A stretch of 36,000 nucleotides of DNA, taken from positions 1 to 36,000 of the IMG/VR virus record IMGVR_UViG_2534681759_000010. One strand, written 5' to 3'. This stretch comes from a virus (lineage: Duplodnaviria > Heunggongvirae > Uroviricota > Caudoviricetes). This document shows, in pieces, positions 4,001-35,040 of the stretch. The position numbers and the translations under genes are program-made. Positions within the stretch are counted from its first letter, which is position 1; each line of letters starts with the position of its first letter. Below the pieces are notes generated by a model that worked only from the letters and a program-made list of their open reading frames with translations, did no database searches and was not told the DNA's origin.

Positions 4001-4195
4001 AATTGCCCCTGAATTTTTGCCCCTGAACCAAAATCCCCTAGATTCCACATCCAATTTTTGCCCCTGAAACCCACTATTTTTGCCCCTGAAATTCTGGGAA
4101 ACAGTGATTTTGCCCCTCATTTTTGCCCCTGAAATGCCAATAATTGCCCCTGAAAATCTAATTTTTGCCCCTGAAATTTGCCCCCCCGAAAAGGA
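4001..4195. repeat. Array of about 8-9 direct copies of (T)TTTGCCCCTGAA(A) with irregular spacing
   Basis: Copies read at approximately 4001, 4013, 4054, 4076, 4107 (degenerate), 4121, 4142, 4160 and 4176 (degenerate). The same core forms the palindromic stem of the terminator at about 6494-6522. Confidence 0.65.
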
Positions 4196-4352
4196 TTGGT
4201 GAGAAAAACTCTTTATAAAACATTAACTTAGTGAGGGGCAAAAGCGGGGGATCGGGCGTGCATAGATATTATATAACACATTCGCTACGCTCATGTGTAA
4301 AACCAAAAACAACAAATAACCAAAAAGATATTAGGAGGGCGTAGCCCGACTG

Positions 4353-4650
4353 CGCGAAGCGCCAACCAATTACTTCTAGTAACAACTAATTTAAACTAGA
4401 TGATCTTAGAAGGAATTAACTAGTTTGCTCGCTCGCTTCGCTCACTCCCAAACGTCTGCGACGCCACTGCGTGGCATCGAGAATCACTTTTGAAAGGATT
4501 TTCTTAGAAAGGGATTTAATACCAGATGATAACTGATTCTAGTAAACGAACGAAGTGAGTAACAATCACTTTCTAGAAAGGTATTGGTTATCCCTTCGGG
4601 ATTGCAACCTTCGGTTGCCAAATTGCTTCCTGATTATTATTATTTCTCCA
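4353..4650 (+). ncRNA. Candidate structured non-coding RNA or leader: two tandem UUCG-tetraloop hairpins, then a U-rich tract
   Basis: No ORF; repeated CTAGAAAGG-ATT motifs; ATCCC-TTCG-GGGAT and GCAAC-CTTCG-GTTGC hairpins near 4590-4620 followed by a T-rich run; bracketed by an 18/20 direct repeat. Strand and ends uncertain. Confidence 0.25.
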
Positions 4651-4824: not shown

Positions 4825-5292
4825 ATGAACCATAAACTGACTACCACTACTCCTTTTATCCTTCTGGGTCTGGATGCAGATAGCTTTCACAATGACAAGT
4901 TAATGAAGATGTTCCGTGAACGTGGTTATAACATCCTTTACAATACCGATGAATCCCATTTCTCTAGTGCATGGTATGTTTTCGGAAGAAATAAACGTCC
5001 TACCATCGTTGTTAACTGCTTCACCGATGAAGACCGCCTGAAATACCAGAACATTCCAGCAATCATTGTTCGTGATGACCTGCCTTTCGAAGTCCGTGAT
5101 TATGACATTGATTTAGGTAGCTTCGTTACTGTCTATGAACTGGATGAAGCCATGTTTAACTACGGCAAAGAAACCGCTCAGGAAGCCCCAGAACACGATG
5201 AACAAGACGAAGATGACGACGACTACACACCAATCTGTTTCTCTTCTCACGGTGGCTTCTACGGTTACGATGAAGGCTTAGATATGCTGTAA
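4825..5292 (+). CDS. Hypothetical acidic protein, 155 aa (C-terminal DEQDEDDDDY)
   Basis: GAGGA RBS about 8 nt upstream; first rightward gene after the non-coding block. Confidence 0.55.
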   Translation: MNHKLTTTTPFILLGLDADSFHNDKLMKMFRERGYNILYNTDESHFSSAWYVFGRNKRPTIVVNCFTDEDRLKYQNIPAIIVRDDLPFEVRDYDIDLGSFVTVYELDEAMFNYGKETAQEAPEHDEQDEDDDDYTPICFSSHGGFYGYDEGLDML

Positions 5293-5314
5293 TTTAGGTC
5301 AACCCTTTGGCGTC

Positions 5315-5356
5315 TTGTCAAGGGGTATTGACAAAAATTTCTGACTTTTTTATGAT
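5315..5356 (+). promoter_or_regulatory. Rightward sigma70 promoter (TTGACA, 17-nt spacer, TATGAT) overlapped by a perfect palindrome TTGTCAA-ggggta-TTGACAA
   Basis: Read directly from sequence; a second TTGACA follows about 35 bp downstream. Confidence 0.5.
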
Positions 5357-5414
5357 TATCGCACTTGACAACTTTGAACCTATTTGACCTAGATTTGTAA
5401 AGAGGATGTTAATT

Positions 5415-5561
5415 ATGAACACTACTAAGAAAATTGATGGACGTAAAAACCCGAACCGCAAACCGTGGACCCCAAACCTGAATTTCTCAATGGTTGACTT
5501 CCATGAACGCCAGCGTCGCATTCAAGAAGAAATTGATCGCGCGATTGCTGAATCTAAATGA
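5415..5561 (+). CDS. Small basic protein, 48 aa (MNTTKKIDGRKNPNRKPWTPNLNFSMVDFHERQRRIQEEIDRAIAESK)
   Basis: Below the ORF-track size cut-off; GAGG RBS upstream; immediately downstream of the promoter. Confidence 0.35.
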   Translation: MNTTKKIDGRKNPNRKPWTPNLNFSMVDFHERQRRIQEEIDRAIAESK

Positions 5562-5662
5562 GATAAAAACTTCTTATAAATAAAATTGTTCCGCGCGCCG
5601 TTGGCGTGTGGACAGTTAAAACAGGAGAATCAATCACTAAACCGTTTAAGGGGAATTTAATT

Positions 5663-6487
5663 ATGAATACTGTTACTGCTATGAATACTGCTAAAACTGC
5701 TTCCGTGTCTCTGGTTGTTGATAACACCAAACCGCTGACCATGTCTTCTCGTCAGATCGCTGAATTTACCGATAAGAAGCACAGCAATGTAATGCGCGAT
5801 ATTCGCGAAATGTACGAATCTTTAGGTATTATCGATCAGCTCAAAACTGAATTTGTCGAGAGAATCAATAACTTAGGATATGCTGTTAAAGAACCAGTAT
5901 ATCACTTAGACGAAGAAATGACGCTGACTCTTGTCACTGGTTACGATGTTAAGCGTCGAATGGTTGTTATTCAGGAATGGAAGCGACTGAAAGAAGAAAA
6001 TGAAAAACTGCGTCAGGAACGTTTAGCTGCTAACCCGTATGCAGACTTTGAAGAAACAGACTGGATCGAACTGGCATTAAAGAAAACTCGCGAAAATAAA
6101 AAGCTGATTGAACTTCATGTTCGCAAATCCGTAGATAGCCATTCAATGACCCGTCTGTTAGGCGCTAAAAAGGGCGCTACGAAGGTTAAAGAAGCACTGA
6201 CGGCCTTGCGTACTGCTGGCTACATTGAGCGCGTCTACGATGAAAATAACAAGCCGTGTGGGTATGTTGCTAATGACTCTTCTCTGTCTTTCTGCCGCAT
6301 GAATGCTCACTACCAACTTGAGTTTACTGTTGATGTTCTTCCGGTGCTGGTTGAATTGGGCGTTTTGGAAGAAGAACAGAAAGCAACTCTTAAACTACCG
6401 CAGCCAAATAACACTATTCTGATTCAAAACAAAGCGGCTGAACGTCTCCGCCAGAATGTTGGATCACTGGAACACTTCGGACTGTAA
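5663..6487 (+). CDS. Rha-family phage regulatory protein
   Basis: N-terminal LTMSSRQIAEFTDKKHSNVMRDIREM fits the Rha signature; start taken at the internal ATG with an AGGGG RBS (track start 5606 + 57). Confidence 0.65.
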   Translation: MNTVTAMNTAKTASVSLVVDNTKPLTMSSRQIAEFTDKKHSNVMRDIREMYESLGIIDQLKTEFVERINNLGYAVKEPVYHLDEEMTLTLVTGYDVKRRMVVIQEWKRLKEENEKLRQERLAANPYADFEETDWIELALKKTRENKKLIELHVRKSVDSHSMTRLLGAKKGATKVKEALTALRTAGYIERVYDENNKPCGYVANDSSLSFCRMNAHYQLEFTVDVLPVLVELGVLEEEQKATLKLPQPNNTILIQNKAAERLRQNVGSLEHFGL

Positions 6488-11564: not shown

Positions 11565-13577
11565 ATGCTTAAATTTCGCCGCGATCTTAACGGTTACGGT
11601 GGAGTTATTAACGAAGGGCATAACGATCAATACGAATTTGAAATTGCTTTCTCAAGTACACTGCCTTATCAGCGCCAATTTTGGGATGAGCAAAATCAAG
11701 AAATGGTGGTATTAGATGAAATTCTGGTACATACACCGGAAGCGGTTGATCTGTCTCGTCTGAATAATAACGCTCCGTTGCTGTTCAATCATAATTTCGA
11801 TAATCATATTGGTGTCGTTTGTAACGCTCGAATCGATGCGGATAACGTAGGTCGTGCTCTGGTTAAATTCTCTAAGCATGGCACTTTGGCTAATGATATT
11901 CGTAATAAAGTTATTGAAGGTACGATGGAAAAAATTTCTGTCGGCTATGACATTAAAGAATATCACATCGATTACGCTAAATCGCAACTCATTGTTTCTA
12001 AATGGATTCCGCACGAAATTTCATTTGTGACGGTCCCGGCGGACGATTCGGTCGGTTTAAATCGCTCTCTAAATACTATCACAGTTAATTTGGGGGCTAA
12101 ACGCGATATGACTAAAGAACAAATCGAAGAAATCAAAGAAGAACAAGAATCCGCTCAGGTTGAAGAAACTCCGGTAGAAGAAAATAAAGAACCGGAAGTT
12201 GAAGAAACTCAAGAGCGCCAAGTTGAAGAGAATGAAGAAAATGAAAATCTCGAAGACGGAAAAGACGCTGAACATCCTGAAAGTGTTGATGATGATAGTT
12301 CAACTGTTCGGGAAACAGAAGAAGTAAAAGAAGAACGTGAAGCCGCTCCGGTTGAAGAAGAAAAAACCGAGGAAGTGGCTGAACGTTCCGAAGAAGACGA
12401 ATTAGAAATCCGAGCAATCGCTCGTGAGTTAAATATTAACGAAGACGATGAAGAATTTAAACGCGCATTGGCAAATAAAGAAATCACGCCGGAAGCATTC
12501 CGCACTAAGGCACTAAATAAAATCGCTACTGCTCAACGTAACAACGAACAAATTAATAAGGAACAAATCATGGAAAAAACTTTCGATCTTAATAACGTAA
12601 TCCGCTCCCTGGTAGATGGCGACGTGCTCGGCGCTAACGAAGCTGAATATTCCGCTATGGCTGCTACTGCAACTATGCAGCGTGGTCGTGCTGCTCGTGG
12701 TGGCTCTGTATTCGTTCCGGCTGCTGCTATGCGTGCTGCTTCCGAAGGTAACACCAAAGCTACTCTGACTGCTGTTACTGATGAAAAACTGCTGACTGAA
12801 TCCTACATCGAAATGCTGCTTCCACAGTCTGTTCTGGGTCGTCTGGGTGTGACTGTTCTGTCTGGTCTGAATAGCCCGATTGCAGTACCAAAAATGACTG
12901 CTTCCAGCGTCGAAGCCTTTGGTTTTGTTGATGAAAATGGAAGTGCCCCCGAGTCGAAGGCTACCTTTGCAAACGTGAAAATGTCTCCTAAGACGTTTGC
13001 TGGTGGGAACCCGATCAGCAGAGCTAGCATTAAGCAAGTTCCCGGCATCGCTACCCTGATCACTGATCACATTAACAAAGCTGTTCGGATCAAACTGGAA
13101 CAACTGATTCTGTCTGACAAAGATAATACTCGTGGTCCGGCTGGTCTGGTTAAGCAACTGGTAGACGGTGGTCGCGTTACTAAGAAAGCCGCTTTTAGCT
13201 ACAAAGACTTCCTGAAAGAAATTGCAGCACTGACCGACGCTGGCGTTCCGGCACAGTCCATCAAGTTTGCAATGAGCGGTGCAACTTCTGCTGAACTGGA
13301 ATCTACCCTGAAAGATAACGGCGTTTCCGGTTATATCATCGAAAACGGCAAACTGGCTGGTTACGATGTAGTTACTTCTGGCGTTATTCCGGCAGACCAC
13401 ATCGTTCTGGGTGACTTCTCCGGTATCATGATCGGTGAATGGGGTGGTCTGGAACTGGATATGGACGACACCACTTACCGCGCACAGTCTGCTATCGTTC
13501 CGCGTATCTGGGTAGACCTGGACTTCACCGTAGTTCAGCCGGAAGCTCTGAAAGTTCTTCACATCTCCGCTGAATGA
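11565..13577 (+). CDS. Fusion polyprotein: HK97-type (S78) prohead protease, acidic scaffold-like linker, HK97-fold major capsid protein
   Basis: N-terminal LLFNHN...HEISFVTVPADDS fits S78 motifs; an E/D-rich stretch of about 150 aa; C-terminal half ends like an HK97-fold capsid protein (GDFSGIMIGEWGGLELD...). Confidence 0.7.
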   Translation: MLKFRRDLNGYGGVINEGHNDQYEFEIAFSSTLPYQRQFWDEQNQEMVVLDEILVHTPEAVDLSRLNNNAPLLFNHNFDNHIGVVCNARIDADNVGRALVKFSKHGTLANDIRNKVIEGTMEKISVGYDIKEYHIDYAKSQLIVSKWIPHEISFVTVPADDSVGLNRSLNTITVNLGAKRDMTKEQIEEIKEEQESAQVEETPVEENKEPEVEETQERQVEENEENENLEDGKDAEHPESVDDDSSTVRETEEVKEEREAAPVEEEKTEEVAERSEEDELEIRAIARELNINEDDEEFKRALANKEITPEAFRTKALNKIATAQRNNEQINKEQIMEKTFDLNNVIRSLVDGDVLGANEAEYSAMAATATMQRGRAARGGSVFVPAAAMRAASEGNTKATLTAVTDEKLLTESYIEMLLPQSVLGRLGVTVLSGLNSPIAVPKMTASSVEAFGFVDENGSAPESKATFANVKMSPKTFAGGNPISRASIKQVPGIATLITDHINKAVRIKLEQLILSDKDNTRGPAGLVKQLVDGGRVTKKAAFSYKDFLKEIAALTDAGVPAQSIKFAMSGATSAELESTLKDNGVSGYIIENGKLAGYDVVTSGVIPADHIVLGDFSGIMIGEWGGLELDMDDTTYRAQSAIVPRIWVDLDFTVVQPEALKVLHISAE

Positions 13578-13711
13578 ACTAACGTAGAACCATCTGAACC
13601 TTCCCCCGATTTGGGGGAAGAAAATCTGATTCCATCTCAGGAAGAAGAATCTCAGACGGTTACGGCGAAAGCCACAGTTAAAAAACAACGTAAAACTAAA
13701 GAATAATAATT

Positions 13712-13740
13712 AGCCCTGCCTAACGGTGGGGCTTTTTTGT
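13712..13740 (+). terminator. Rho-independent terminator downstream of the capsid gene
   Basis: AGCCCTGCC-TAAC-GGTGGGGCT hairpin followed by TTTTTT. Confidence 0.6.
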
Positions 13741-13768
13741 ATGTAAATACTCCATAAAGGGGGTAACT

Positions 13769-15383: not shown

Positions 15384-18300
15384 ATGCAATCAATCCAATT
15401 TAAGCGAACTAATGTAGCTGGCAAAAAGCCAACGCCGGAACAATTACAGGTCGGTGAGGTAGCAATCAACCTTAAAGACCATGTTATTTTTACCAAAGAC
15501 CGAGATCATGAAGTAGTTCAAATCTCTGTTTCTCCTGAAACTCACGCGGCACTAGAATCTAAAGTTGATGCTAACAAACAAGAACTGGATAGTACAATTG
15601 CAGTAAATGACCGCAATATTCACGCTAAAGTAGATGAAATTAAACAAACTACTGATGCAACCATCGCAGCAAATCACGCAGAAATTAACAATAAAGTTGA
15701 TGTAATTAAACGCGAAACCGACGCGACAATCGAGGCCAATAAAAATAAAGCTGCTTCCGATCTTGCTGGTGTTAAAGCTGAATTGTCGGATACCATCAAC
15801 GCTAATAAAAATGCGGCTGCTGTAGCAACTCAGGAACTGGACACCCGCATCAATAAAAAAGTTGATGATATTAAATCCCGTACCGATGCAACCATCGCAA
15901 GCAATTACAAAGCAATCAATGACAAAGTTGATTTGATTAAGGCAGAAACTGACCGCACTATCGCAGCAAATCACGCCTATGCGGAAAATCAGTTAACTGA
16001 CACCTACAATAACCTTACTGGTGTGATTGCGGCTAATAAGCAAGAGGCAGCGGATAACGTCGCAGCATTAACCCGTGATGTTGAAGCCAAAAATTCAGCA
16101 ATTCATAGCAAAGTTGACAATAACAAGTCTTACACTGATTCTGAACTGGCACGCTTAGAAAGCCGTATTGATGCAGCCGACGGATCGAGTGATGGCAAGT
16201 ACATCAAAAAACACGTAAACACTTATACTGATGGTTATTTGTTGTCTAAGACCGCAAACTATTTTGATGATCCGACCGCACGAAATCTTGATTATTTTGG
16301 TGCATTCCGCATGAATGACCTGGCGGGTCATATTGCAATGATCTTGCATGTTCCGCATCCATCTGGTGTTAATCATGCTCGTGGCTTTGAGTTCACTTAT
16401 GGGTCTAATCCGGTTCATACGGTAAGAACATACGGCTACGATGAATTGGGTAACTTGTCATATTCTCACCGCATGTATCATGAAGGCGATAAACCTACTC
16501 CGGCTGAAATTGGCGCATATTCGAAAGCAGAAATTGACCGACTGTTCCAGAAGACGCTTAATTTTGGGATCGAGGGTGGTTGGTTTAAACTAGGCACTTT
16601 GACAATGCCACAGCAACACGGTCGTAGTGCTAAGATCCGCTTAGTTGGTGGTAACGGTTATAACGTCGGGATGAATGGACAAGCCAATATTATCGAATTG
16701 GTGATTCGATGCGGCAACAATAGCCCGAAAGGTGTTGTATTCAATGCGTATTATACTATTTGGCATTATGAACAACATTTTTGCGCTATTCCAACCGATG
16801 GCGACAATTACGATCTTTACGCTTACTACGGTGCACATACAGGATTTGTTTTAGCAGAATATCAAGTTTCTTCCGGTGGTGTTTCTTTAAACCTGTTGGA
16901 TACTCCTGAATATCTGGGTGGTGAAAAACCTGTTGCAGATGAAATTTTTGATGCTCTTAACATTTCATCGTTCAATAACTTTAGCAACCGTGGAACGTTA
17001 AATTTTGCTGGAAACCATCAAGGCCAATACGACATTGAGCATATGAACGAACAACCGACAAATGCTAAAAAGATGTTGCGTCGCTTCCGTAGTTCTGCTC
17101 CTGCCACTATCTGGCACGAAAGTGTTGATGACCAAAATTATCGTCTTGCTACTGGATATACCGATGTAACCCAACAATTATTGCTTTCGGCTGTAACCGG
17201 TTTGCATATTCGTAGATTGACCATCGATGGTGGCTTGGGTTCCGGTTCTAATGCTGGTATTGATATTCGTCGAGGACCAAACGAAGCAAGCCATTTTAAT
17301 TTTATGGATTATCGCACTGGTCAAGATGTTCGTAATGGCTGGTTTGGTTTTGGTGATTTGACGACCAAAGATTTTATTTGGTGGAACGATAACGGTCAAA
17401 ACTCAATAAACTTGATCGAAAACGGTGAATTGCATATTACTGGCGGTAAAGGCCAGAAAATTGTAATGAATAGCGAAGTTGCATTATCTGAAAATGCTCG
17501 TTTGGCTGTCAGAGGCGGTAACTATGGTTTGATATTACGCAATGATGGTTCTAACTTCCATATTCTTACTACCGATTTAAAAGATTCTTTTGGTAATTGG
17601 AATAATCGCAGACCATTCAGCTATAATTTTGAGGACGGTGGACTATATTTAGGTGGCACTGAAACTGCTCGTTGTTTGCATCTGGGAATTGATGGTAGCA
17701 CTCGTCTCGAAGACAACCTTTTCTTTAAATCTGGTTCTCGTCAATCTATGGACTATATGGAACTCGTCCATTGGGGGGCAAGCAATACAGGTCGAAATAA
17801 CGTTTTAAGTCTTCGTGACTCAAAAGGATTTTTAGCCGAATTTGAACGCGTGGGGGGGACTAACGGCGTTAAAACCAGATTCTTTGGTGAAACCTTCACT
17901 GACGGTACATTATACCTAAATCAGATGAATAATAGCTCTGAACGATTCTCTATCAACAATTGGGGAAATTCAGAAGTTGGTCGCGCGGCAGTAATGGAAA
18001 TCGGCGATTCAAAAGGTTATCACTTCTATACTGAACGTAGGACAGATAACAGTTTGATGTTTGATGTTGCTGGCGCTTTTACTGTGCATGGATCTAGCGG
18101 GATCACTATCAAAAACTCTGATGGTGCTCGTCACATCTGGTTTAGAGATAACAGCGAATCGGAAAAGGCTGTTATTTGGGCGACCGATGAAGGTATTTTA
18201 CATATTCGCAATAACCACGGTGGACCATTTAGTCATCACTTTAAGGGTGCAATGATTCAACTGGAAGGGCGTGTTCCTTATGCCGCAGATCAAGGACTTA

Positions 18301-18914
18301 TCCGTGGTGAAGTTGATGGTGGTGCATATGTTGCATGGAGAGACCGCCCTGCTGGTTTGTTGGTTGACTGCCAGAAAAGTGTTGACAGTGCTCATGCTGT
18401 TTGGAAAGCGGTTGATTGGGGGCGTCAATATATCGCTGCTATGGACGTTCACTGTCCGGGTGATGGTAATAATACCGCAGCCGCTGTTCTTCATGTTCAG
18501 GCTGCCGATTATCAATTCCATGCAAGCGGAGAATTTCATGCCACTGGCAACGGAAACTTTAACGATGTGTATATTCGTTCTGACCGTCGCCTTAAAGACA
18601 ATATAGAAGATTATACCGGAAATGCGTTAAGTTTGATTGGTAAGCTGAAAGTGAAAACTTACGATAAAGTTAAATCTCTTAAGGACCGTGAAATTATAGG
18701 CCATGAGATTGGCATTATCGCACAGGATTTACAAGAAATATTACCAGAAGCTGTGAAATCTTCAAAAGTTGGCAATCTTGATAATCCAGACGATGTTCTG
18801 ACAATTTCTAACTCGGCAGTGAACGCGCTGTTAATTAAAGCGATTCAAGAAATGAGCGAAGAAAATAAAATCCTTCGTGAACGTCTTGCTGCAATTGAGG
18901 CTAAATTAGGGTAA
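15384..18914 (+). CDS. Tail fibre with N-terminal repeat region and C-terminal S74-type intramolecular chaperone domain
   Basis: About 19-aa repeats (KVDxIKxxTDATIAAN) in the first 250 residues; C-terminal NDVYIRSDRRLKDNIE...IIAQDLQEILPEAV resembles the self-cleaving chaperone domains of T5 pb1 and K1F endosialidase. Confidence 0.8.
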   Translation: MQSIQFKRTNVAGKKPTPEQLQVGEVAINLKDHVIFTKDRDHEVVQISVSPETHAALESKVDANKQELDSTIAVNDRNIHAKVDEIKQTTDATIAANHAEINNKVDVIKRETDATIEANKNKAASDLAGVKAELSDTINANKNAAAVATQELDTRINKKVDDIKSRTDATIASNYKAINDKVDLIKAETDRTIAANHAYAENQLTDTYNNLTGVIAANKQEAADNVAALTRDVEAKNSAIHSKVDNNKSYTDSELARLESRIDAADGSSDGKYIKKHVNTYTDGYLLSKTANYFDDPTARNLDYFGAFRMNDLAGHIAMILHVPHPSGVNHARGFEFTYGSNPVHTVRTYGYDELGNLSYSHRMYHEGDKPTPAEIGAYSKAEIDRLFQKTLNFGIEGGWFKLGTLTMPQQHGRSAKIRLVGGNGYNVGMNGQANIIELVIRCGNNSPKGVVFNAYYTIWHYEQHFCAIPTDGDNYDLYAYYGAHTGFVLAEYQVSSGGVSLNLLDTPEYLGGEKPVADEIFDALNISSFNNFSNRGTLNFAGNHQGQYDIEHMNEQPTNAKKMLRRFRSSAPATIWHESVDDQNYRLATGYTDVTQQLLLSAVTGLHIRRLTIDGGLGSGSNAGIDIRRGPNEASHFNFMDYRTGQDVRNGWFGFGDLTTKDFIWWNDNGQNSINLIENGELHITGGKGQKIVMNSEVALSENARLAVRGGNYGLILRNDGSNFHILTTDLKDSFGNWNNRRPFSYNFEDGGLYLGGTETARCLHLGIDGSTRLEDNLFFKSGSRQSMDYMELVHWGASNTGRNNVLSLRDSKGFLAEFERVGGTNGVKTRFFGETFTDGTLYLNQMNNSSERFSINNWGNSEVGRAAVMEIGDSKGYHFYTERRTDNSLMFDVAGAFTVHGSSGITIKNSDGARHIWFRDNSESEKAVIWATDEGILHIRNNHGGPFSHHFKGAMIQLEGRVPYAADQGLIRGEVDGGAYVAWRDRPAGLLVDCQKSVDSAHAVWKAVDWGRQYIAAMDVHCPGDGNNTAAAVLHVQAADYQFHASGEFHATGNGNFNDVYIRSDRRLKDNIEDYTGNALSLIGKLKVKTYDKVKSLKDREIIGHEIGIIAQDLQEILPEAVKSSKVGNLDNPDDVLTISNSAVNALLIKAIQEMSEENKILRERLAAIEAKLG

Positions 18915-18952
18915 TTGGAAAGCGGGGAGAAATCCCCGCTAAGGATTCTTAT

Positions 18953-19249
18953 ATGGGATATTGGGTAAGTAGTGAAATTAATACTAAAATCGATGCTTTA
19001 AAATGGCATGTATTTGATATTCCTAACGGTTATGGTACTGCTCGCGCTGGTGTTGCTGTTTTAAAATATAATGCTGGTGGTGGATGGGCTGATGGTGTGA
19101 TTAACGTAGATGGTTTGACCGTTGCTCGTCGTCGTGGTGGAACTAATTGGGGATCTACTATAAATTCGTTTGTTCCTGCTGGCTGCACCGTCACCTGTGG
19201 ACACGGCGGTGATGGTGGTATTGAATATTTTAAATTCATGGAGTTTTAA
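18953..19249 (+). CDS. Gly-rich small protein, paralog 1 of 3 (FDIPNGY motif)
   Basis: 98 aa; shares W...FDIPNGW/Y, Gly-rich centre and an aromatic-basic C-terminus with the next two ORFs. Confidence 0.6.
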   Translation: MGYWVSSEINTKIDALKWHVFDIPNGYGTARAGVAVLKYNAGGGWADGVINVDGLTVARRRGGTNWGSTINSFVPAGCTVTCGHGGDGGIEYFKFMEF

Positions 19250-19251
19250 TT

Positions 19252-19557
19252 ATGGCTGGATGGATAAATCAAAGAATGTCAAACGCTATTAGTATTTGGG
19301 CTAATGGTGGGTATTTTGATATCCCAAACGGTTGGGTCACTGATTCATGCGGAATTGTTTTTGCTCATATGGAAGCCGTTAACGGTGCTGGTGATCTTGA
19401 TTCTGAATTGGCTGTAAATGGATTGATTGAATCAGGTCATCATGCTGGTGATGCTGGGAGTTGGGGCGCTAGTTCTTTAGTTGGCGCTGGTGCTACCGTT
19501 AGCTTTACATTGGGTAAAGGTAGTTTGCATTATTTCAAATTCAGGAGAATGCACTAA
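19252..19557 (+). CDS. Gly-rich small protein, paralog 2 of 3 (FDIPNGW motif)
   Basis: 101 aa; start 2 nt after the upstream stop. Confidence 0.6.
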   Translation: MAGWINQRMSNAISIWANGGYFDIPNGWVTDSCGIVFAHMEAVNGAGDLDSELAVNGLIESGHHAGDAGSWGASSLVGAGATVSFTLGKGSLHYFKFRRMH

Positions 19558-19859
19558 TGGCATTTTGGGTAGATGGCGCTTTGGGGAATAGGGCGGGTAA
19601 AGCAAATCAAGGATGGTTTGATATTCCTAACGGTTGGACAGCCGACGCTTTCGGGACTATTTCATTCTGTGCTCATTCTTCCGGTGGTGGCGGCGGTGAC
19701 TCTGAATTGTTTATTCATGGTTTTTGTGTTTCTGGAAGCCATAAGGGTCATGATTGGGGACAGATTCATTCTTGTATTGCACCGCAAGGGGCGGTAATTA
19801 CCGTTAGCACAAATAGGGGGATCGCTCATCTTCGTTATAGACGTTTGAGCAACCGCTAA
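19557..19859 (+). CDS. Gly-rich small protein, paralog 3 of 3 (FDIPNGW motif)
   Basis: 100 aa; TAATG stop-start overlap with paralog 2. Confidence 0.6.
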   Translation: MAFWVDGALGNRAGKANQGWFDIPNGWTADAFGTISFCAHSSGGGGGDSELFIHGFCVSGSHKGHDWGQIHSCIAPQGAVITVSTNRGIAHLRYRRLSNR

Positions 19860-19913
19860 ATAAATAGAATTACGGGTATGTGCCCTATTGTTTAAAATAG
19901 AAGGAAAAGAATA

Positions 19914-30745: not shown

Positions 30746-31099
30746 ATGTTAAGTAAGCATTTTTCTCGCAAGGAATTTAAATGTAAATGCGGAAAATGTG
30801 ATTATGATACAATCGACGCTGAATTACTGGTGATTCTTGAGGATGTACGAGAGCACTTCGGGAAACCAGTAATTATTAACAGTGGGAACCGTTGTCCGAC
30901 TCATAACAAGAATGTAGGCGGGGCAACCAACAGCTATCACGTTCGAGGCCGTGCGGCTGACATTGTGGTCAAGGGTGTCTCCCCTGATATTGTCCATGCT
31001 TATCTTGATGGGAAATATCCTACTCAATACGGCTTAGGCAAATATAAAACCTTTACGCATATTGATAGCAGGTCGAAAAAATCTCGATGGAATGGATAA
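30746..31099 (+). CDS. Endolysin, peptidase M15 family (zinc D-Ala-D-Ala carboxypeptidase-like, L-alanyl-D-glutamate peptidase type)
   Basis: GGGGG RBS; NSGNRCPTHNKNVGGATNSYHVRGRAADIVV ... FTHIDSR carries the H-x-D ... H zinc-ligand pattern of M15 peptidases. Confidence 0.75.
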   Translation: MLSKHFSRKEFKCKCGKCDYDTIDAELLVILEDVREHFGKPVIINSGNRCPTHNKNVGGATNSYHVRGRAADIVVKGVSPDIVHAYLDGKYPTQYGLGKYKTFTHIDSRSKKSRWNG

Positions 31100-31104
31100 A
31101 ATTA

Positions 31105-31130
31105 AAGCGCCTCTAGTGGGCGCTTTTTTG
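31105..31130. terminator. Bidirectional rho-independent terminator between convergent genes
   Basis: AAGCGCC-TCTAGTG-GGCGCTT hairpin followed by TTTTTG on + and a T-rich tract on the minus strand. Confidence 0.6.
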
Positions 31131-31712
31131 TTAGAATATGCTGGCGACGTTAGCTATATTTCTGACCATTTTTTCATTATAAACAAACGTTTCTGTAGCA
31201 CCTTCTTTAATATCAAAATCACCTTTTACTAGGTTTTTCTTGATAAACAATTCTGCCGCGTATGCGTCTTTTTCGTCTTGAAATTCGAAAGCCTCGATGA
31301 TATCAAATTTCATCTTATTCTGGCATCTTAGCTTATGTTTTCTCTTCAACACATTGTGACTTACTCCAACCTTACCCACATCACCACACCGCATAACATA
31401 TAATACTGGTTGCCCATTTTTATATTTGTTGTCATATTTGCTACGATTACACGGGCACACAGTAGGATTATGTAAGAATTGTTTTGCTGTTATATCTCTG
31501 ATTCTTGCGCAGCTTTCACACTCTAGCACAATACGGCTATTGATTGATTTATACTCACCTTTGAATCCGTGGTAAATCAAGGGTAAACCCTCGTTTTCAA
31601 TACGGGTCACGATCCTTGCTTCCATATCAATTGGATGTGATGGCGCTTTGCCATTTTTGGTGCGGATAAAATTGAACGGGATATCACATGCTTTGCGCAC
31701 ATCATTCATCAT
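31131..31712 (-). CDS. Zinc-finger plus T5orf172 (GIY-YIG superfamily) domain protein; homing-endonuclease-like
   Basis: Cys cluster CESCARIRDITAKQFLHNPTVCPC; LYVMRCGDVGKVGVSHNVLKR ... ETF fits the T5orf172 pattern. Start set at the internal ATG with a GAGG RBS (track start 31724 is a GTG). Confidence 0.55.
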   Translation of the reverse strand: MMNDVRKACDIPFNFIRTKNGKAPSHPIDMEARIVTRIENEGLPLIYHGFKGEYKSINSRIVLECESCARIRDITAKQFLHNPTVCPCNRSKYDNKYKNGQPVLYVMRCGDVGKVGVSHNVLKRKHKLRCQNKMKFDIIEAFEFQDEKDAYAAELFIKKNLVKGDFDIKEGATETFVYNEKMVRNIANVASIF

Positions 31713-31752
31713 AAAAAACCTCACTTAATTTATCTTATAGGCATTACCTTTA

Positions 31753-32205
31753 ATGTTGATGATCGAGTTCGTAGAAACCGAATTAACTAAACTGGCTTCC
31801 GAAATGGAAGAAGAAACTCCGGCAGAAGGAACCAGTATTAACGATCTTATTCTGGCAGCAGATACCGCAGATGATAAAGTAGTATTCGACGAAGTTGATC
31901 CGTCTCTGGTTGAAGCAATGAAAGAACCTGAGATCGTCATTGAAGAAACAAAAGAAGAATCTCCAGCAGTTGAACCAGTGGTCGAAGAAGTTAAGTCAGA
32001 TGTTGAAGAAGCACCGGAAGTTAAAGTGAAATCTCCGGTAGCAAACATTTTCTCTGACGAAGCAGAACATCGTTCCCCAGCACATGACACTGATTCATTT
32101 TGCGATCTTACTGGCTTCCGTCCGACCATTTGCTTGATCGGTGGCGGTCGTGGTTACTACTCCTGCCCGTGGTCTTCAACCATTACAACAAATTTTTCTC
32201 AATAA
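31753..32205 (+). CDS. Highly acidic protein, 150 aa (E/D/V/P-rich, VEE repeats); DNA-mimic or anti-restriction candidate
   Basis: Frame uses codons I recall as preferred in enterobacteria (GAA, CCG, CTG, GCA); the overlapping minus-strand ORF 31725..32129 is a Ser/Thr-rich antisense shadow. Confidence 0.5.
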   Translation: MLMIEFVETELTKLASEMEEETPAEGTSINDLILAADTADDKVVFDEVDPSLVEAMKEPEIVIEETKEESPAVEPVVEEVKSDVEEAPEVKVKSPVANIFSDEAEHRSPAHDTDSFCDLTGFRPTICLIGGGRGYYSCPWSSTITTNFSQ

Positions 32206-32240
32206 ATAGTAGTGAACTTATTATTTTCGAGGACACTAAT

Positions 32241-33239
32241 ATGAATACTACTTTAGCAAAGGATATCGAATTTACCGCAAAAAGCAAACGTGCGACCCCT
32301 CCGGTCGAATATGAAACCAGAATCATTAAAGTTTGTCAAGCGCATGGATGGTTATACAGTGGTTTTGTGCTTCCTGTAAAGAAACCATTCCAGAACACCA
32401 AAGTTTGCATAGAAGTTAACGGAAAGGTTAAAACGCCATGTATTAGTCATGTTCTAACTGGTCAGTTTACTGGCAAAGATAGAGTATCACCGCCTAAGAA
32501 GAAGTTTAGATTTACCGAAGAAGAACACTTAGAAAACGCTCGCAAGTTCTACAAGCCGATAGGGTGGGATGTGTTAGGTCTGGCTGAACCTTATCAGGGT
32601 GTTGACACTAAACTAATTCTTCGTTGTAAGTGCCACGGAAAGATTCACAAGAAAGGTGATTTACACAATAACCGCAGACAAGGCGGGTTAACATGCCCTT
32701 TGGTTAGGGGTGTACTTAAATCAATTCAGAATGGTAGAAAACAGGTTATCAGAAACAAGTTTGCACAGCGCCCTATGCACTTTTATCTAATTCGTGTTGG
32801 CGAGAAGTTTTTCAAATATGGAATTACCACTCGCAAAGATCCGATGCAACGGGTAAGAGAACACCAGAAGCACACCAGCGAGAAAATCACCTTTGAATGC
32901 TCACATTTGTTTAACATTGGATGGAAAGCTGGTGATTTAGAAATGGGGATTAAAAAGAATATTCAGGGCAAGAAAATCCCACGTAAGGTAATGAATAGCG
33001 GATTCACAGAAACGCTACCGATTAGCAAGCTGAAAGATGTTAAATCATTCATCAATGAATACATCCACACCAACCCATCTAAGCCAATGTATTTTGATGA
33101 TACCAACGCAATCAATCTGAACAACTACATTAGTGATGAAGACATAGAACGAGATTTATCGCAGTGGATGAATGCACCGTTAGCTGATTTAACACCGGAA
33201 AACTTAGAACTCGATTTAAGCCCTTTAGAGGCTCTCTAA
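32241..33239 (+). CDS. Second zinc-finger plus T5orf172 domain protein, divergent paralog of 31131..31712
   Basis: GAGG RBS before the internal ATG (track start 32100 + 141); Cys/His cluster RCKCHGKIHKKGDLH...LTCPL; HFYLIRVGEKFFKYGITTRKDPMQRVREH fits the T5orf172 core. Confidence 0.55.
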   Translation: MNTTLAKDIEFTAKSKRATPPVEYETRIIKVCQAHGWLYSGFVLPVKKPFQNTKVCIEVNGKVKTPCISHVLTGQFTGKDRVSPPKKKFRFTEEEHLENARKFYKPIGWDVLGLAEPYQGVDTKLILRCKCHGKIHKKGDLHNNRRQGGLTCPLVRGVLKSIQNGRKQVIRNKFAQRPMHFYLIRVGEKFFKYGITTRKDPMQRVREHQKHTSEKITFECSHLFNIGWKAGDLEMGIKKNIQGKKIPRKVMNSGFTETLPISKLKDVKSFINEYIHTNPSKPMYFDDTNAINLNNYISDEDIERDLSQWMNAPLADLTPENLELDLSPLEAL

Positions 33240-33253
33240 CGCAATTAAATTCA

Positions 33254-33285
33254 AAAGGGGTACTAATACCCCTTAACTGTTTTAG
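33254..33285. terminator. Bidirectional terminator between convergent genes
   Basis: AAGGGGTA-CTAA-TACCCCTT hairpin with T-rich flanks on both strands. Confidence 0.5.
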
Positions 33286-33310: not shown

Positions 33311-34990
33311 TTAAATTCCAAATTCCTGTAATGGACCTGGTATTTCCTCTTCTGGTTTCCAGTTCTTATCTGTCAGCATGTCTAAACATGGATGCAAAAC
33401 AAGCCCGTTACTTTCCAGAATCTGTCTATCATTGATAGTTTTCAAATCAACGAAGATCCGGCCTTTCCTCGGTCCTCTTGAATTTTCTATTACAACTCTC
33501 TGGGTCTTGCCATCGATGTATTCCAGTACAAACAAGTTTTTGTACTTGTCAATCCTGCTACACCCGATCCGTTTTAGAGCTTGCTTAATCTTAAACCGGA
33601 CCTTAATGCGATCCTCGTTGTAAACATCTTCTATATCAAATTCTGCGAGCTTCTCCCAGCCTTGAGAGTCAACAGAATACATTTCCTCTTCTGCCATCTT
33701 AATTTGATTGTAGAGTGTTTCACGCTCGCTATTGAGGGTAGTAATCTGATCGGCTAGCTCCTTCGTTGCTCCTGTCATAGCAGAAAGGGTAATCAGGTTA
33801 TCAATCTTGCGTGATATTTCATCAATCTGTACTTTCAAAGCCGGAACCGGATTAGCCTTATCCTCAGCAATCCAGATTTTATCAGCCAGCAATTGCAATA
33901 CAGCTTTCTCTAATTGATCACCTCGAAAACTCCAGTTTGTATGCACACATGCAATACGACTAGAGCGCATTGCATCGCATGAATAACGATATTGGTTAGG
34001 ACGTTTGTTAGTTCCTTTCACCTTAACCATAGCGGAACCGCAATGTTCACATTTCAATAGACCAACACCACTAAGCAAGGGAATAGGTTTAACTTCTTCC
34101 TTGTCTCCATAGTTACATGCTCTAACACCAATGCTTTTCTTAAGGTGATAAAACTCAGCGTCATCTAGCACACGAGGATAATAATCCTTTAACTCATACT
34201 TAACGCCATCTACAGAGATTTCCTTGATACCAATCAAAGCGCGGGTATGGAACAACCTTTCAATCATTGCCCGTGACCAGTTTGAATGCCTCTTGTGACT
34301 TGCGGCTGGTGGTGGTGTGTATGTCGCGTTAAGGTGATCCAGTATCTCGGCGGTTGACCGTCCATTCCTGCGTAATTCCACAACTTCCTGAACAATAGGG
34401 AAGAAGACCGGATGAGGAAGCACATAACCAGATGTGGTATCAGTCCACCACATATTCTTTCCAATTTCCTCGATTGCAACAGCCGGATTTTGTGGATTTT
34501 CTTGATGAGCTTTAATCTTAATCAATGCGCTTGAGTTAGTACGATTGCGCTTAGTCTGACTTTCCTCGTTAGCTCTCGCAAACAACATGACACTCAACAG
34601 CAAATCAATAGGATTGGCATTAACCGATTCCTTGCTATAGACCTTACCATCCATGCCAGTTACGATAGTTATTCCCCTACGGATAATCGAGAGAAATAGC
34701 TCTTGTGCTTCAATGATGGATTGGCGAGAGATACGGTCTAAGTTTTCCACAACCAGCCAGCTACCAACCGGAACGGATCGACCAATCTCATCCAGAAAGC
34801 GAGATAGTGCACCTGTTCTACTGTTAGCCCCTTTGAATGCAGATACACCAAAATCCTGATAGGAAGTAACCAGTTCAAGGTCATATTTTGCGGCTATCTC
34901 TGCGGCTGTTCTCTTTTGGCGTTCATAAGAACTACCATCTGCTTGCTTCATGGAAGAGAAGCGAATATACGAATACAGTTTAGTTTTCAT
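33311..34990 (-). CDS. Large serine recombinase (serine integrase or invertase-like)
   Basis: N-terminal resolvase catalytic domain (MKTKLYSYIRFSSMKQADGSSYERQ); long C-terminal extension with Cys cluster (CEHCGS...C...C) and coiled coil, typical of large serine recombinases. Start at the internal ATG (track start is a TTG). Confidence 0.8.
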   Translation of the reverse strand: MKTKLYSYIRFSSMKQADGSSYERQKRTAAEIAAKYDLELVTSYQDFGVSAFKGANSRTGALSRFLDEIGRSVPVGSWLVVENLDRISRQSIIEAQELFLSIIRRGITIVTGMDGKVYSKESVNANPIDLLLSVMLFARANEESQTKRNRTNSSALIKIKAHQENPQNPAVAIEEIGKNMWWTDTTSGYVLPHPVFFPIVQEVVELRRNGRSTAEILDHLNATYTPPPAASHKRHSNWSRAMIERLFHTRALIGIKEISVDGVKYELKDYYPRVLDDAEFYHLKKSIGVRACNYGDKEEVKPIPLLSGVGLLKCEHCGSAMVKVKGTNKRPNQYRYSCDAMRSSRIACVHTNWSFRGDQLEKAVLQLLADKIWIAEDKANPVPALKVQIDEISRKIDNLITLSAMTGATKELADQITTLNSERETLYNQIKMAEEEMYSVDSQGWEKLAEFDIEDVYNEDRIKVRFKIKQALKRIGCSRIDKYKNLFVLEYIDGKTQRVVIENSRGPRKGRIFVDLKTINDRQILESNGLVLHPCLDMLTDKNWKPEEEIPGPLQEFGI

Positions 34991-34999
34991 ACCATTTCC

Positions 35000-35040
35000 A
35001 AACAAAAACGCCCCTACCGCGTATTATAACGATAGGGGCA
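35000..35040 (-). terminator. Hairpin terminator immediately upstream of the recombinase start
   Basis: GCCCCTA...TAGGGGC stem with a 16-nt loop containing TATTATAAC, followed on the minus strand by GTTTTTGTTT. Confidence 0.4.

Follow-up and report, generated by a model that had tools for sequence, protein, structure and literature searches.

Putative homing-endonuclease-type genes beside a remnant of the Krischvirus inh gene in a lambda-like prophage of Escherichia coli

The stretch of viral DNA analysed here, positions 1 to 36,000 of IMG/VR record IMGVR_UViG_2534681759_000010 (36,000 nucleotides in total; hereafter the window), belongs to a lambda-like siphovirus prophage of Escherichia coli. 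Between its endolysin and serine recombinase genes, at positions 31131-33239, two divergently transcribed genes coding for predicted nucleases flank an acidic open reading frame (ORF) that is a fragment of inh, a gene of the virulent T4-like phages of the genus Krischvirus. The two outer genes are rather probably free-standing genes of the homing-endonuclease type, situated at a boundary across which temperate and virulent phages exchange DNA, with the inh fragment (inh') as a co-converted remnant that is decaying between them. The original prediction, made from the letters of this DNA alone, had located three ORFs here, with divergent outer genes and a 40-bp gap ahead of the acidic ORF; all three are present, the outer two being a 193-amino-acid (aa) gene on the minus strand and a 332-aa gene on the plus strand, and the gap corresponds to positions 31713-31752. 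The second of the two explanations then offered, a homing-endonuclease cluster between the lysis genes and the recombinase, emerges as the best supported, given the paralogous nucleases and the synteny with the slot occupied by segE in phage T4.

The inh fragment and its flanking nuclease genes

The module comprises the following features (nt, nucleotides):

31131-31712, minus strand: predicted 193-aa nuclease gene ('GIY193' family), ATG start at 31712
~31149-31376, minus strand: T5orf172/GIY-YIG core predicted in the 193-aa gene
~31452-31613, minus strand: CapR-type Zn finger of the 193-aa gene
31713-31758: left part of the divergent intergenic region, containing the GAGG Shine-Dalgarno sequence of the minus-strand gene and a conserved block
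31753-32205, plus strand: inh', the acidic ORF of 150 aa, with a PHROG 1051 match
31759-32173, plus strand: inh-identical patch of 415 bp, ungapped, matching nt 145-559 of the 726-nt inh
32194-32240, plus strand: conserved upstream block of the 332-aa gene, (A/T)ATAAATA(G/A)TAGTGAACTTATTATTTT, then GAGGA, then ATG
32241-33239, plus strand: predicted 332-aa nuclease gene ('HEG332' family), ATG at 32241
~32544-32705, plus strand: Cys/His module of the 332-aa gene
~32772-33026, plus strand: T5orf172/GIY-YIG core predicted in the 332-aa gene
33093-33236, plus strand: conserved acidic C-terminal tail of the 332-aa protein, residues 285-332

At the DNA level the patch is 99.0% identical to inh of Escherichia phage JSE (3857-4582 of record L005, with the match at 4001-4415) and 98.3-99.0% identical in the 20 best-matching Krischvirus records (JSE, Phi1, GEC-3S, ECD7 and others), while 59 phage records match it overall, 48 of them at an identity of at least 95%. 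Residues 3-140 of the acidic ORF correspond to residues 49-186 of the 241-aa JSE Inh protein (98.6% identity), and the ORF matches PHROG 1051, 'minor head protein inhibitor of protease', at 3e-21; the function of Inh, inhibition of the prohead protease gp21, rests on database annotation. The N-terminal 48 and the C-terminal 55 residues of Inh are missing, and the homology thus falls short of the full-length protein. The acidity of the ORF (35 aspartate and glutamate versus 10 lysine and arginine residues, isoelectric point (pI) of 4.05) arises because the central part of Inh is acidic, and the gap upstream of it is short because an internal inh fragment has been placed between two divergent nuclease genes. 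The original prediction had remarked that this gap leaves little room for a promoter; the gap itself stands, while the notion of a gene with a promoter of its own gives way to that of an internal gene fragment. No purine-rich Shine-Dalgarno sequence occurs upstream of the ATG of the acidic ORF, unlike for both nuclease genes, its stop codon is contained in the block conserved ahead of the 332-aa gene, and it is absent or further deleted in most sister prophages with intact nuclease genes. It is probably neither translated nor required by the nucleases, and the best-supported reading of inh' is that of a co-converted or recombined, decaying remnant with no function of its own. On the opposite strand, a Ser/Thr-rich ORF of 134 aa (31725-32129, minus strand) mirrors the GAA/GAT-rich sense strand of inh' and is almost certainly not a gene.

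The minus-strand gene is given in the ORF listing as 31131-31724, from a GTG at 31724 which falls within the Shine-Dalgarno sequence (GAGG at 31720-31723); RefSeq annotates a product of 193 aa in sister prophages, and the true start is likely the ATG at 31712. The plus-strand ORF, listed as 32100-33239, in fact begins at the ATG at 32241 and is preceded by a GAGGA Shine-Dalgarno sequence (32229-33). The 193-aa protein consists, in order, of an N-terminal AKDI-type motif with a helix, a CapR-type Zn finger and a T5orf172/GIY-YIG core. The 332-aa protein has the architecture of this paralog with the addition of an extra N-terminal module (~80 residues) and of the acidic C-terminal tail, which is missing from the 193-aa protein. 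Direct comparison of the two by BLASTP is weak (E 0.013), and profile-profile alignment (hhalign) of the two families (21 homologs for the 193-aa and 18 for the 332-aa protein) gives a probability of 99.1% (E 1.3e-18) over 170 columns that cover the Cys-module region. The outer genes had been described as diverged paralogs, with which this alignment agrees, and on comparison of their sequences the paralogy is real but old.

The N-terminal Cys cluster anticipated in both proteins takes the form of conserved Cys modules. The residues C65xxC68...C86xC88 (193-aa numbering) are invariant in the 21 homologs, and the Pfam CapR model (PF21817) scores 25.8 bits on the 193-aa protein against a curated cut-off of 24.2, which places this protein and its CxxC...CxC motif within the family. 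The 332-aa protein reaches only 16 bits with the same hidden Markov model (HMM), below the cut-off, and carries a variant CxCH...C pattern, in which C129, C131, H132 and C152 are invariant among its 12 closest homologs and C129 and C152 in all 18.

The nuclease core of the 193-aa protein scores below the curated cut-offs of T5orf172 (17.4 versus 20 bits), MUG113 (17.8 versus 22.3) and GIY-YIG (13.5 versus 22.6), and that of the 332-aa protein matches MUG113 only (13.3 bits; cut-off 22.3). The HMM searches proposed as a check on the original prediction thus fail at the curated thresholds of these three models and succeed with PHROG 681, 'endonuclease', which matches the two nucleases at 5e-22 and 3e-20; PF10544 is also precomputed for the homologs P0021, P0022, P0024, P0025 and P0033. 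NCBIfam returned no matches for the three window proteins, and PADLOC-DB 2.0 none for the 193-aa protein and only marginal ones for the other two (E ~0.005). The T5orf172 (GIY-YIG-like) core is borne out by the GIY-YIG alpha/beta fold, which is confidently modelled for both nucleases, and by the invariant core positions, namely Y105, K114, G116, R124 and E154 (plus E174 and F176) in the 21 homologs of the 193-aa protein and Y182, K192, G194, R204 and E234 (plus E257) in the 18 homologs of the 332-aa protein. Despite identities down to 34-40%, both families thus keep the core Tyr, Lys-x-Gly, Arg and Glu invariant. Fold and motifs support membership of the T5orf172/GIY-YIG superfamily, which the curated HMM thresholds do not; going by the family pattern, the invariant positions would be the catalytic residues, and both outer proteins are predicted to be active as nucleases.

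The acidic tail of the 332-aa protein contains 12 aspartate and glutamate residues and a single lysine or arginine, and ends in ...PLADLxPExLELDLSPLEAL. Its ELDLxP end is retained in nearly all family members, including those at 36% identity, and PLADL in about half of them. The tail looks like a short linear interaction motif, and one may speculate that its partner is of the clamp or SSB type. The gene is intact in 12/12 close copies, with ratios of nonsynonymous to synonymous substitution (dN/dS) that are mostly 0.1-0.4 between pairs, as calculated from few substitutions.

The conserved block upstream of the 332-aa gene persists even in the allele that lacks its coding sequence. It reads AATAAATA in the window and forms a perfect T4-late-type TATAAATA in the sister records L004, L024 and L007, and it resembles a T4 late promoter, although as a candidate for one it is only a weak lead. 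The perfect block in these three alleles is suggestive, yet ATAAATA occurs at chance frequency in the window, with 14 copies (10 on the plus and 4 on the minus strand), approximately the number predicted by composition, and may only reflect intergenic DNA rich in AT. Plus-strand copies are located at 982, 1589, 4774, 5576, 7489, 19860, 23606, 30354 and 32202, and an ORF start on the same strand follows most of them at a distance of 23-90 nt. A sigma-70-like match within the upstream block (32196-32224) is no better than chance. In the intergenic region adjoining the 193-aa gene, the block CTTATAGG is kept in all five alleles aligned and reads, on the minus strand, CCTATAAG, which is -10-like.

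Slot alleles, shared tracts and decay

In the window and its sister prophages, the slot between the endolysin and the serine recombinase holds pieces of a T4-like block, uvsY, uvsW.1, uvsW, nuclease / inh', nuclease, in the following arrangements:

Window type: nuclease (minus) / inh' (plus), nuclease (plus)
L008-L010 (Salmonella): uvsW (minus), nuclease (minus) / nuclease (plus)
L011/L012: uvsW.1 (minus), uvsW (minus), nuclease (minus) / nuclease (plus, 394 aa)
L025: uvsY fragment, uvsW, nuclease / nuclease-like gene of 391 aa
L034: full uvsY (47% aa identity to JSE), uvsW, nuclease / nuclease
L006: uvsW only, the 332-aa coding sequence being swapped for 15 nt
L007: nuclease pair surrounding an unrelated 134-aa ORF

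The gene order in phage JSE is uvsY (plus), uvsY.-2 (plus), uvsW.1 (minus), uvsW (minus) / inh (plus), hoc (plus), with which the order and orientation in the prophages agree. The layout of T4 is the same, with the addition of segE between inh and uvsW, 2 nt upstream of the latter. The stop codon of the ~190-aa nuclease gene lies 0-2 nt from the uvsW start in the prophage alleles, and this gene therefore occupies the segE slot. The nuclease pair is found in E. coli and Salmonella sister prophages at protein identities of only 34-57%, with or without inh'. The UvsW proteins of the sister alleles share 70-80% aa identity with that of JSE and UvsW.1 97%, and the presence of intact uvsW, uvsW.1 and uvsY ORFs despite divergence suggests that the prophage makes use of them. 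Intact UvsW genes (496-501 aa), in some cases together with UvsW.1 or a full UvsY homolog, are located at 1932-3422 in L006, 2772-4277 in L008, 2480-4276 in L011 and 3424-5361 in L034, and RefSeq labels the prophage UvsW only as 'DEAD/DEAH box helicase family protein'.

Compared with JSE, the prophage uvsW copies show ~65-75% nt and 70-80% aa identity and are old. Set into a ~70% background, the uvsW of L006 contains a stretch of ~520 nt that is 92-100% identical to JSE, and ~150 nt of the uvsW.1 of L011 are 95-100% identical to JSE; the inh' patch of the window (415 bp, 99%) represents a third near-identical tract. Short patches of high identity in a ~70% background indicate recurrent gene conversion, and they take the form of the co-conversion tracts of homing endonuclease genes (HEGs), with a nuclease as the presumed cause. 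The inh' remnant of L024 shares no more than 80-81% identity with either the window or any of the sequenced Krischvirus phages, and the search for a closer phage donor yielded none above 81%. L004 and L024 have both deletion junctions in common, with flanks that are 98-100% identical, and differ by 10-46% only within the ~250-nt inh' remnant, including a 15-nt in-frame indel. Since the junctions are shared and the differences are confined to inh', one of these two alleles must have been converted by a phage inh after the deletions.

The DNA of RB49, a Krischvirus, is unmodified (PMC4041780), and it can therefore recombine with, and be cut like, host DNA. The fibre region of the prophage (~16470-19875) shares 85-91% nt identity with Krischvirus long-tail-fibre genes, and on account of this common sequence the prophage and Krischvirus likely meet in the same hosts or cells. 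The fibre protein itself (1176 aa; 15384-19875) combines a T4 Gp34 trimerisation domain with an S74 intramolecular chaperone and is encoded between the head and tail genes. Together with downstream small ORFs, its gene shows 85-91% nt identity to the region coding for the distal subunit of the long tail fibre in Krischvirus and other T4-like phages, and this segment constitutes a second, larger T4-like mosaic segment in the window prophage.

Presence/absence polymorphism of the kind known for free-standing HEGs is observed for the 332-aa gene, the coding sequence of which (32246-33235) is swapped near-exactly for 15 nt in L006, with both flanks and the upstream block remaining. L003-type alleles have lost the 193-aa gene through a larger, imprecise deletion. 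A third related nuclease (348 aa, DUF723 and CapR) is encoded at 5001-6047 in the Salmonella relatives L027 and L028, directly after the protease-capsid fusion gene, where the window has only a 191-bp gap (13578-13768); such a polymorphism next to an essential gene is typical of free-standing HEGs.

Among 5,426 complete E. coli genomes, 57 contain the stretch from endolysin to recombinase; in each of them it is chromosomal and in none plasmid-borne, and a search of a plasmid collection with the slot gave zero matches. The full window-type arrangement is found in 7/57 genomes, one of which carries an IS1 insertion (IS1A, within the three-gene module at 1246278-1249757 of NZ_CP138416.1). Nested deletions affect 11/57 genomes, which equals 11 of the 18 inh'-bearing ones: four lack 31188-31861, and with it nearly the whole 193-aa gene as well as 103 nt at the start of the inh patch, six additionally lack 32120-32183, and one is of the L024 type. 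The L006-like arrangement is present in 3/57 genomes, uvsW-type cargo in ~12/57 and short alleles in 19/57. Each class of short alleles was examined through one representative (L022, with a 642-bp span, and L023, with a ~1-kb span); the two retain inh' nt 31901-31931 or 31862-31931 fused to the last 45-120 nt of the 332-aa gene, and these scars of both genes mean that they derive by deletion from a window-like ancestor. Thus inh' and the 193-aa gene are clearly dispensable, and the 332-aa gene is more persistent than either.

The borders of the slot and the genes beyond them are:

30746-31099: endolysin (Peptidase_M15_3)
31104-31126, both strands: bidirectional terminator-like hairpin forming the left border of the variable cargo slot (9-bp stem, 5 GC pairs, T run)
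33255-33274, both strands: bidirectional terminator-like hairpin forming the right border of the cargo slot
33311-35005, minus strand: large serine recombinase (Resolvase, Recombinase and Zn_ribbon_recom domains)

The two hairpins flank the three-gene module on either side, the left one between the endolysin and the 3' end of the minus-strand nuclease gene and the right one between the 332-aa gene and the 3' end of the serine recombinase gene, and homology among all prophage alleles is maintained up to ~31117-31133. Elsewhere the window codes for a gpA-type terminase, a lambda-family portal, a protease-capsid fusion and a J-type tail tip. The fusion is a 670-aa ORF (11565-13577) which joins a prohead serine protease (Peptidase_S78) to a major capsid domain (Phage_capsid). 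At its end the prophage adjoins csgG/ycdZ/ycdY in related contigs from E. coli and Salmonella.

Origin of the module and competing explanations

The slot may be viewed as the remains of a captured T4-like segment comprising uvsY, uvsW.1, uvsW, [nuclease] / inh. Judging from what is known of the family, a nuclease would cut site-specifically a homologous uvsW-inh copy that lacks the nuclease gene; alternatively, the process may start with plain recombination whenever a Krischvirus with unmodified DNA and the prophage share a cell. Repair by homologous recombination would then copy short flanking tracts between the genomes, with patches of 150-520 bp and near-complete identity beside the nuclease genes as the outcome. 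The nuclease genes would last as selfish passengers, and flanking remnants such as inh' would decay by deletion. That the nucleases cause or promote the exchange is what we infer from this combination of features.

Several observations weigh against this interpretation. The conversion patches could come from general recombination without the help of a nuclease, and the arrival of the nucleases together with the T4-like segment is deduced from their position only. The intact 332-aa gene with its dN/dS of 0.1-0.4 and the deep retention of the pair would equally fit a selected function, possibly one beneficial to the host. The 193-aa nuclease is not a homolog of SegE, the hhalign probability being 3%. 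Homing into modern Krischvirus was not observed, neither nuclease being encoded in any of the ~59 sequenced genomes of the genus, and among IMG/VR, metagenome and Genome Taxonomy Database (GTDB) representative sequences no locus outside this prophage family carries either of them. Searches for a phage with these nucleases between uvsW and inh found none, with IMG/VR and metagenome contigs giving the same prophage family only and the GTDB species representatives giving zero matches to the nucleases. Among 50,697 phage records, tblastn with the 193-aa protein returned zero matches and with the 332-aa protein only distantly related sequences (24-35%), located in T5, at a different site of a Krischvirus genome, in a Vibrio phage and in the Shigella phage JK32.

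It is possible, but unlikely, that the module serves the prophage as a defence against Krischvirus. One or both nucleases, once domesticated, would cut the unmodified infecting DNA at or near uvsW-inh, thereby protecting the lysogen or excluding a competitor; the T4-like patches would be scars of phage repair from the prophage copy, and the flanks may stay as homology arms. The PADLOC models gave no match, however, each nuclease gene is dispensable in some alleles, with ~19/57 genomes lacking both, and the late-promoter-like motif occurs in the window only as often as chance predicts. A more elaborate proposal, which we regard as doubtful, is that of a 'homology-armed' nuclease cassette directed against Krischvirus, in which diverged copies of uvsY-uvsW-inh flank the nucleases and late transcription of the invader possibly acts as the trigger through the TATAAATA-like block. 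The cut genome would be destroyed or repaired from the prophage (gene drive, marker exclusion), and the 92-100% patches would be the reciprocal footprints.

The chances are small that the outer proteins are domesticated DNA-binding regulators which, like CapR, act on promoters of the prophage or of an incoming phage rather than as nucleases. Both proteins have a zinc finger with homology to CapR, and CapR provides a precedent for domestication in this family (PMC8096241, PMC10448857). Both families nevertheless retain the complete core, with invariant Tyr, Lys-x-Gly, Arg and Glu over 34-57% divergence, and a GIY-YIG fold is confidently modelled in each.

There is likewise only a slim prospect that Inh' itself is functional, as a dominant-negative or decoy protein disturbing Krischvirus head maturation. 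Its ORF is open for 150 codons, starts at an internal Met of Inh and encodes a product 99% identical to the protein of current Krischvirus phages. Sister slots can moreover hold uvsW, the product of which unwinds origin R-loops and the untimely expression of which might harm a T4-like infection. Against this stand the lack of a Shine-Dalgarno sequence with only 40 bp upstream, the loss of both Inh termini, the various further truncations in 11/18 inh'-bearing E. coli genomes, the scars of 31-70 nt in others, and the absence of inh' from Salmonella and other alleles.

The original prediction had seen in the acidic ORF a possible DNA-mimic anti-restriction factor; this role (Ocr/ArdA-like), or that of an antitoxin or immunity protein paired with nuclease toxins, would suit its strong acidity (pI 4.05) and the adjacent nuclease genes, yet is highly improbable for an inh fragment of 99% DNA identity that lacks a ribosome-binding site, has no Pfam match at E<=1, hence none to ArdA or Ocr, and is missing from several alleles with an intact nuclease pair, of which it is thus not a required immunity partner. 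The homology to inh and the absence from alleles with intact nucleases largely rule out a DNA mimic or antitoxin. The acidic ORF weakly matched a single PADLOC model, that of the HamB helicase (E 0.004), and this match was judged spurious. An attractive but wrong annotation is thereby corrected.

Were the homing-endonuclease-type reading true, the locus would offer a clear natural case of gene flow, marked by nucleases, that links a virulent genus of T4-like phages with a temperate prophage of the lambda type, in which graded alleles (intact, nested deletions and conversion patches) record the history of exchange. The segE slot between uvsW and inh could then host an unrelated nuclease family. 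The two small, uncharacterised T5orf172/CapR nuclease families are confined to one prophage lineage, and their targets should be easily mappable. Lysogens of this prophage may also swap DNA with Krischvirus phages used or considered for therapy.

Relationship to known systems

In T4, segE is a free-standing GIY-YIG HEG located in the inh (hoc.1)/uvsW intergenic region; its product cuts segE-less phages at this site, and homing approaches ~100% with co-conversion of the flanks (PMC2330249, PMC2988022). The locus in the window resembles it in having a gene for a putative ~200-aa nuclease of the GIY-YIG superfamily that directly precedes uvsW in the same orientation and diverges from inh, and the near-identical patches in uvsW, uvsW.1 and inh' resemble SegE co-conversion. 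Unlike SegE, the window nucleases have an N-terminal Zn finger and a C-terminal T5orf172-type core, which is the reversed order, the locus belongs to a temperate prophage of the lambda type, a paralogous second nuclease gene points the opposite way, and the role as a nuclease is a prediction.

T5orf172 homing endonucleases have CxxC...CxC zinc-finger DNA-binding domains (PMC10448857). The window proteins match the T5orf172/CapR HEGs in domain architecture, including those in the 'HEG islands' that ICP1 and further phages carry (Barth, Dunham & Seed 2023, PMC10448857), and the larger paralog likewise has repeated binding modules. As in the HEG islands, nuclease genes border nucleotide stretches of high identity that are common to otherwise unrelated genomes; in contrast to them, the exchange is between a virulent genus of Straboviridae and the prophage of a temperate siphovirus, the tracts measure 150-520 bp rather than >10 kb, and both window families are without close relatives in sequenced phages.

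The CapR protein of the Vibrio cholerae PLE satellites shares the Zn-finger family PF21817, and is described as a satellite protein repressing the capsid genes of phage ICP1 (PMC8096241). CapR and Odn of ICP1 are domesticated derivatives of homing endonucleases and furnish precedents for element-borne proteins that act on an infecting virulent phage; unlike these, the window proteins retain the full nuclease core. Among the Inh proteins of T4-like phages (PHROG 1051), that of JSE is near-identical to inh' over residues 49-186, while inh' lacks the head-gene neighbourhood (hoc, gene 24) of the phage genes. To Ocr and ArdA the acidic ORF is alike only in size range and strong negative charge, with no sequence similarity.

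No earlier description of this locus was found in the searchable literature. By analogy, it is most like T4 segE, the T5orf172/CapR homing endonucleases and the HEG islands, which may serve as the closest working parallels. What sets it apart is a temperate prophage with a mosaic copy of the uvsY-uvsW-inh region of a virulent phage, in which unrelated nucleases fill the segE slot and near-identical patches of recent date occur.

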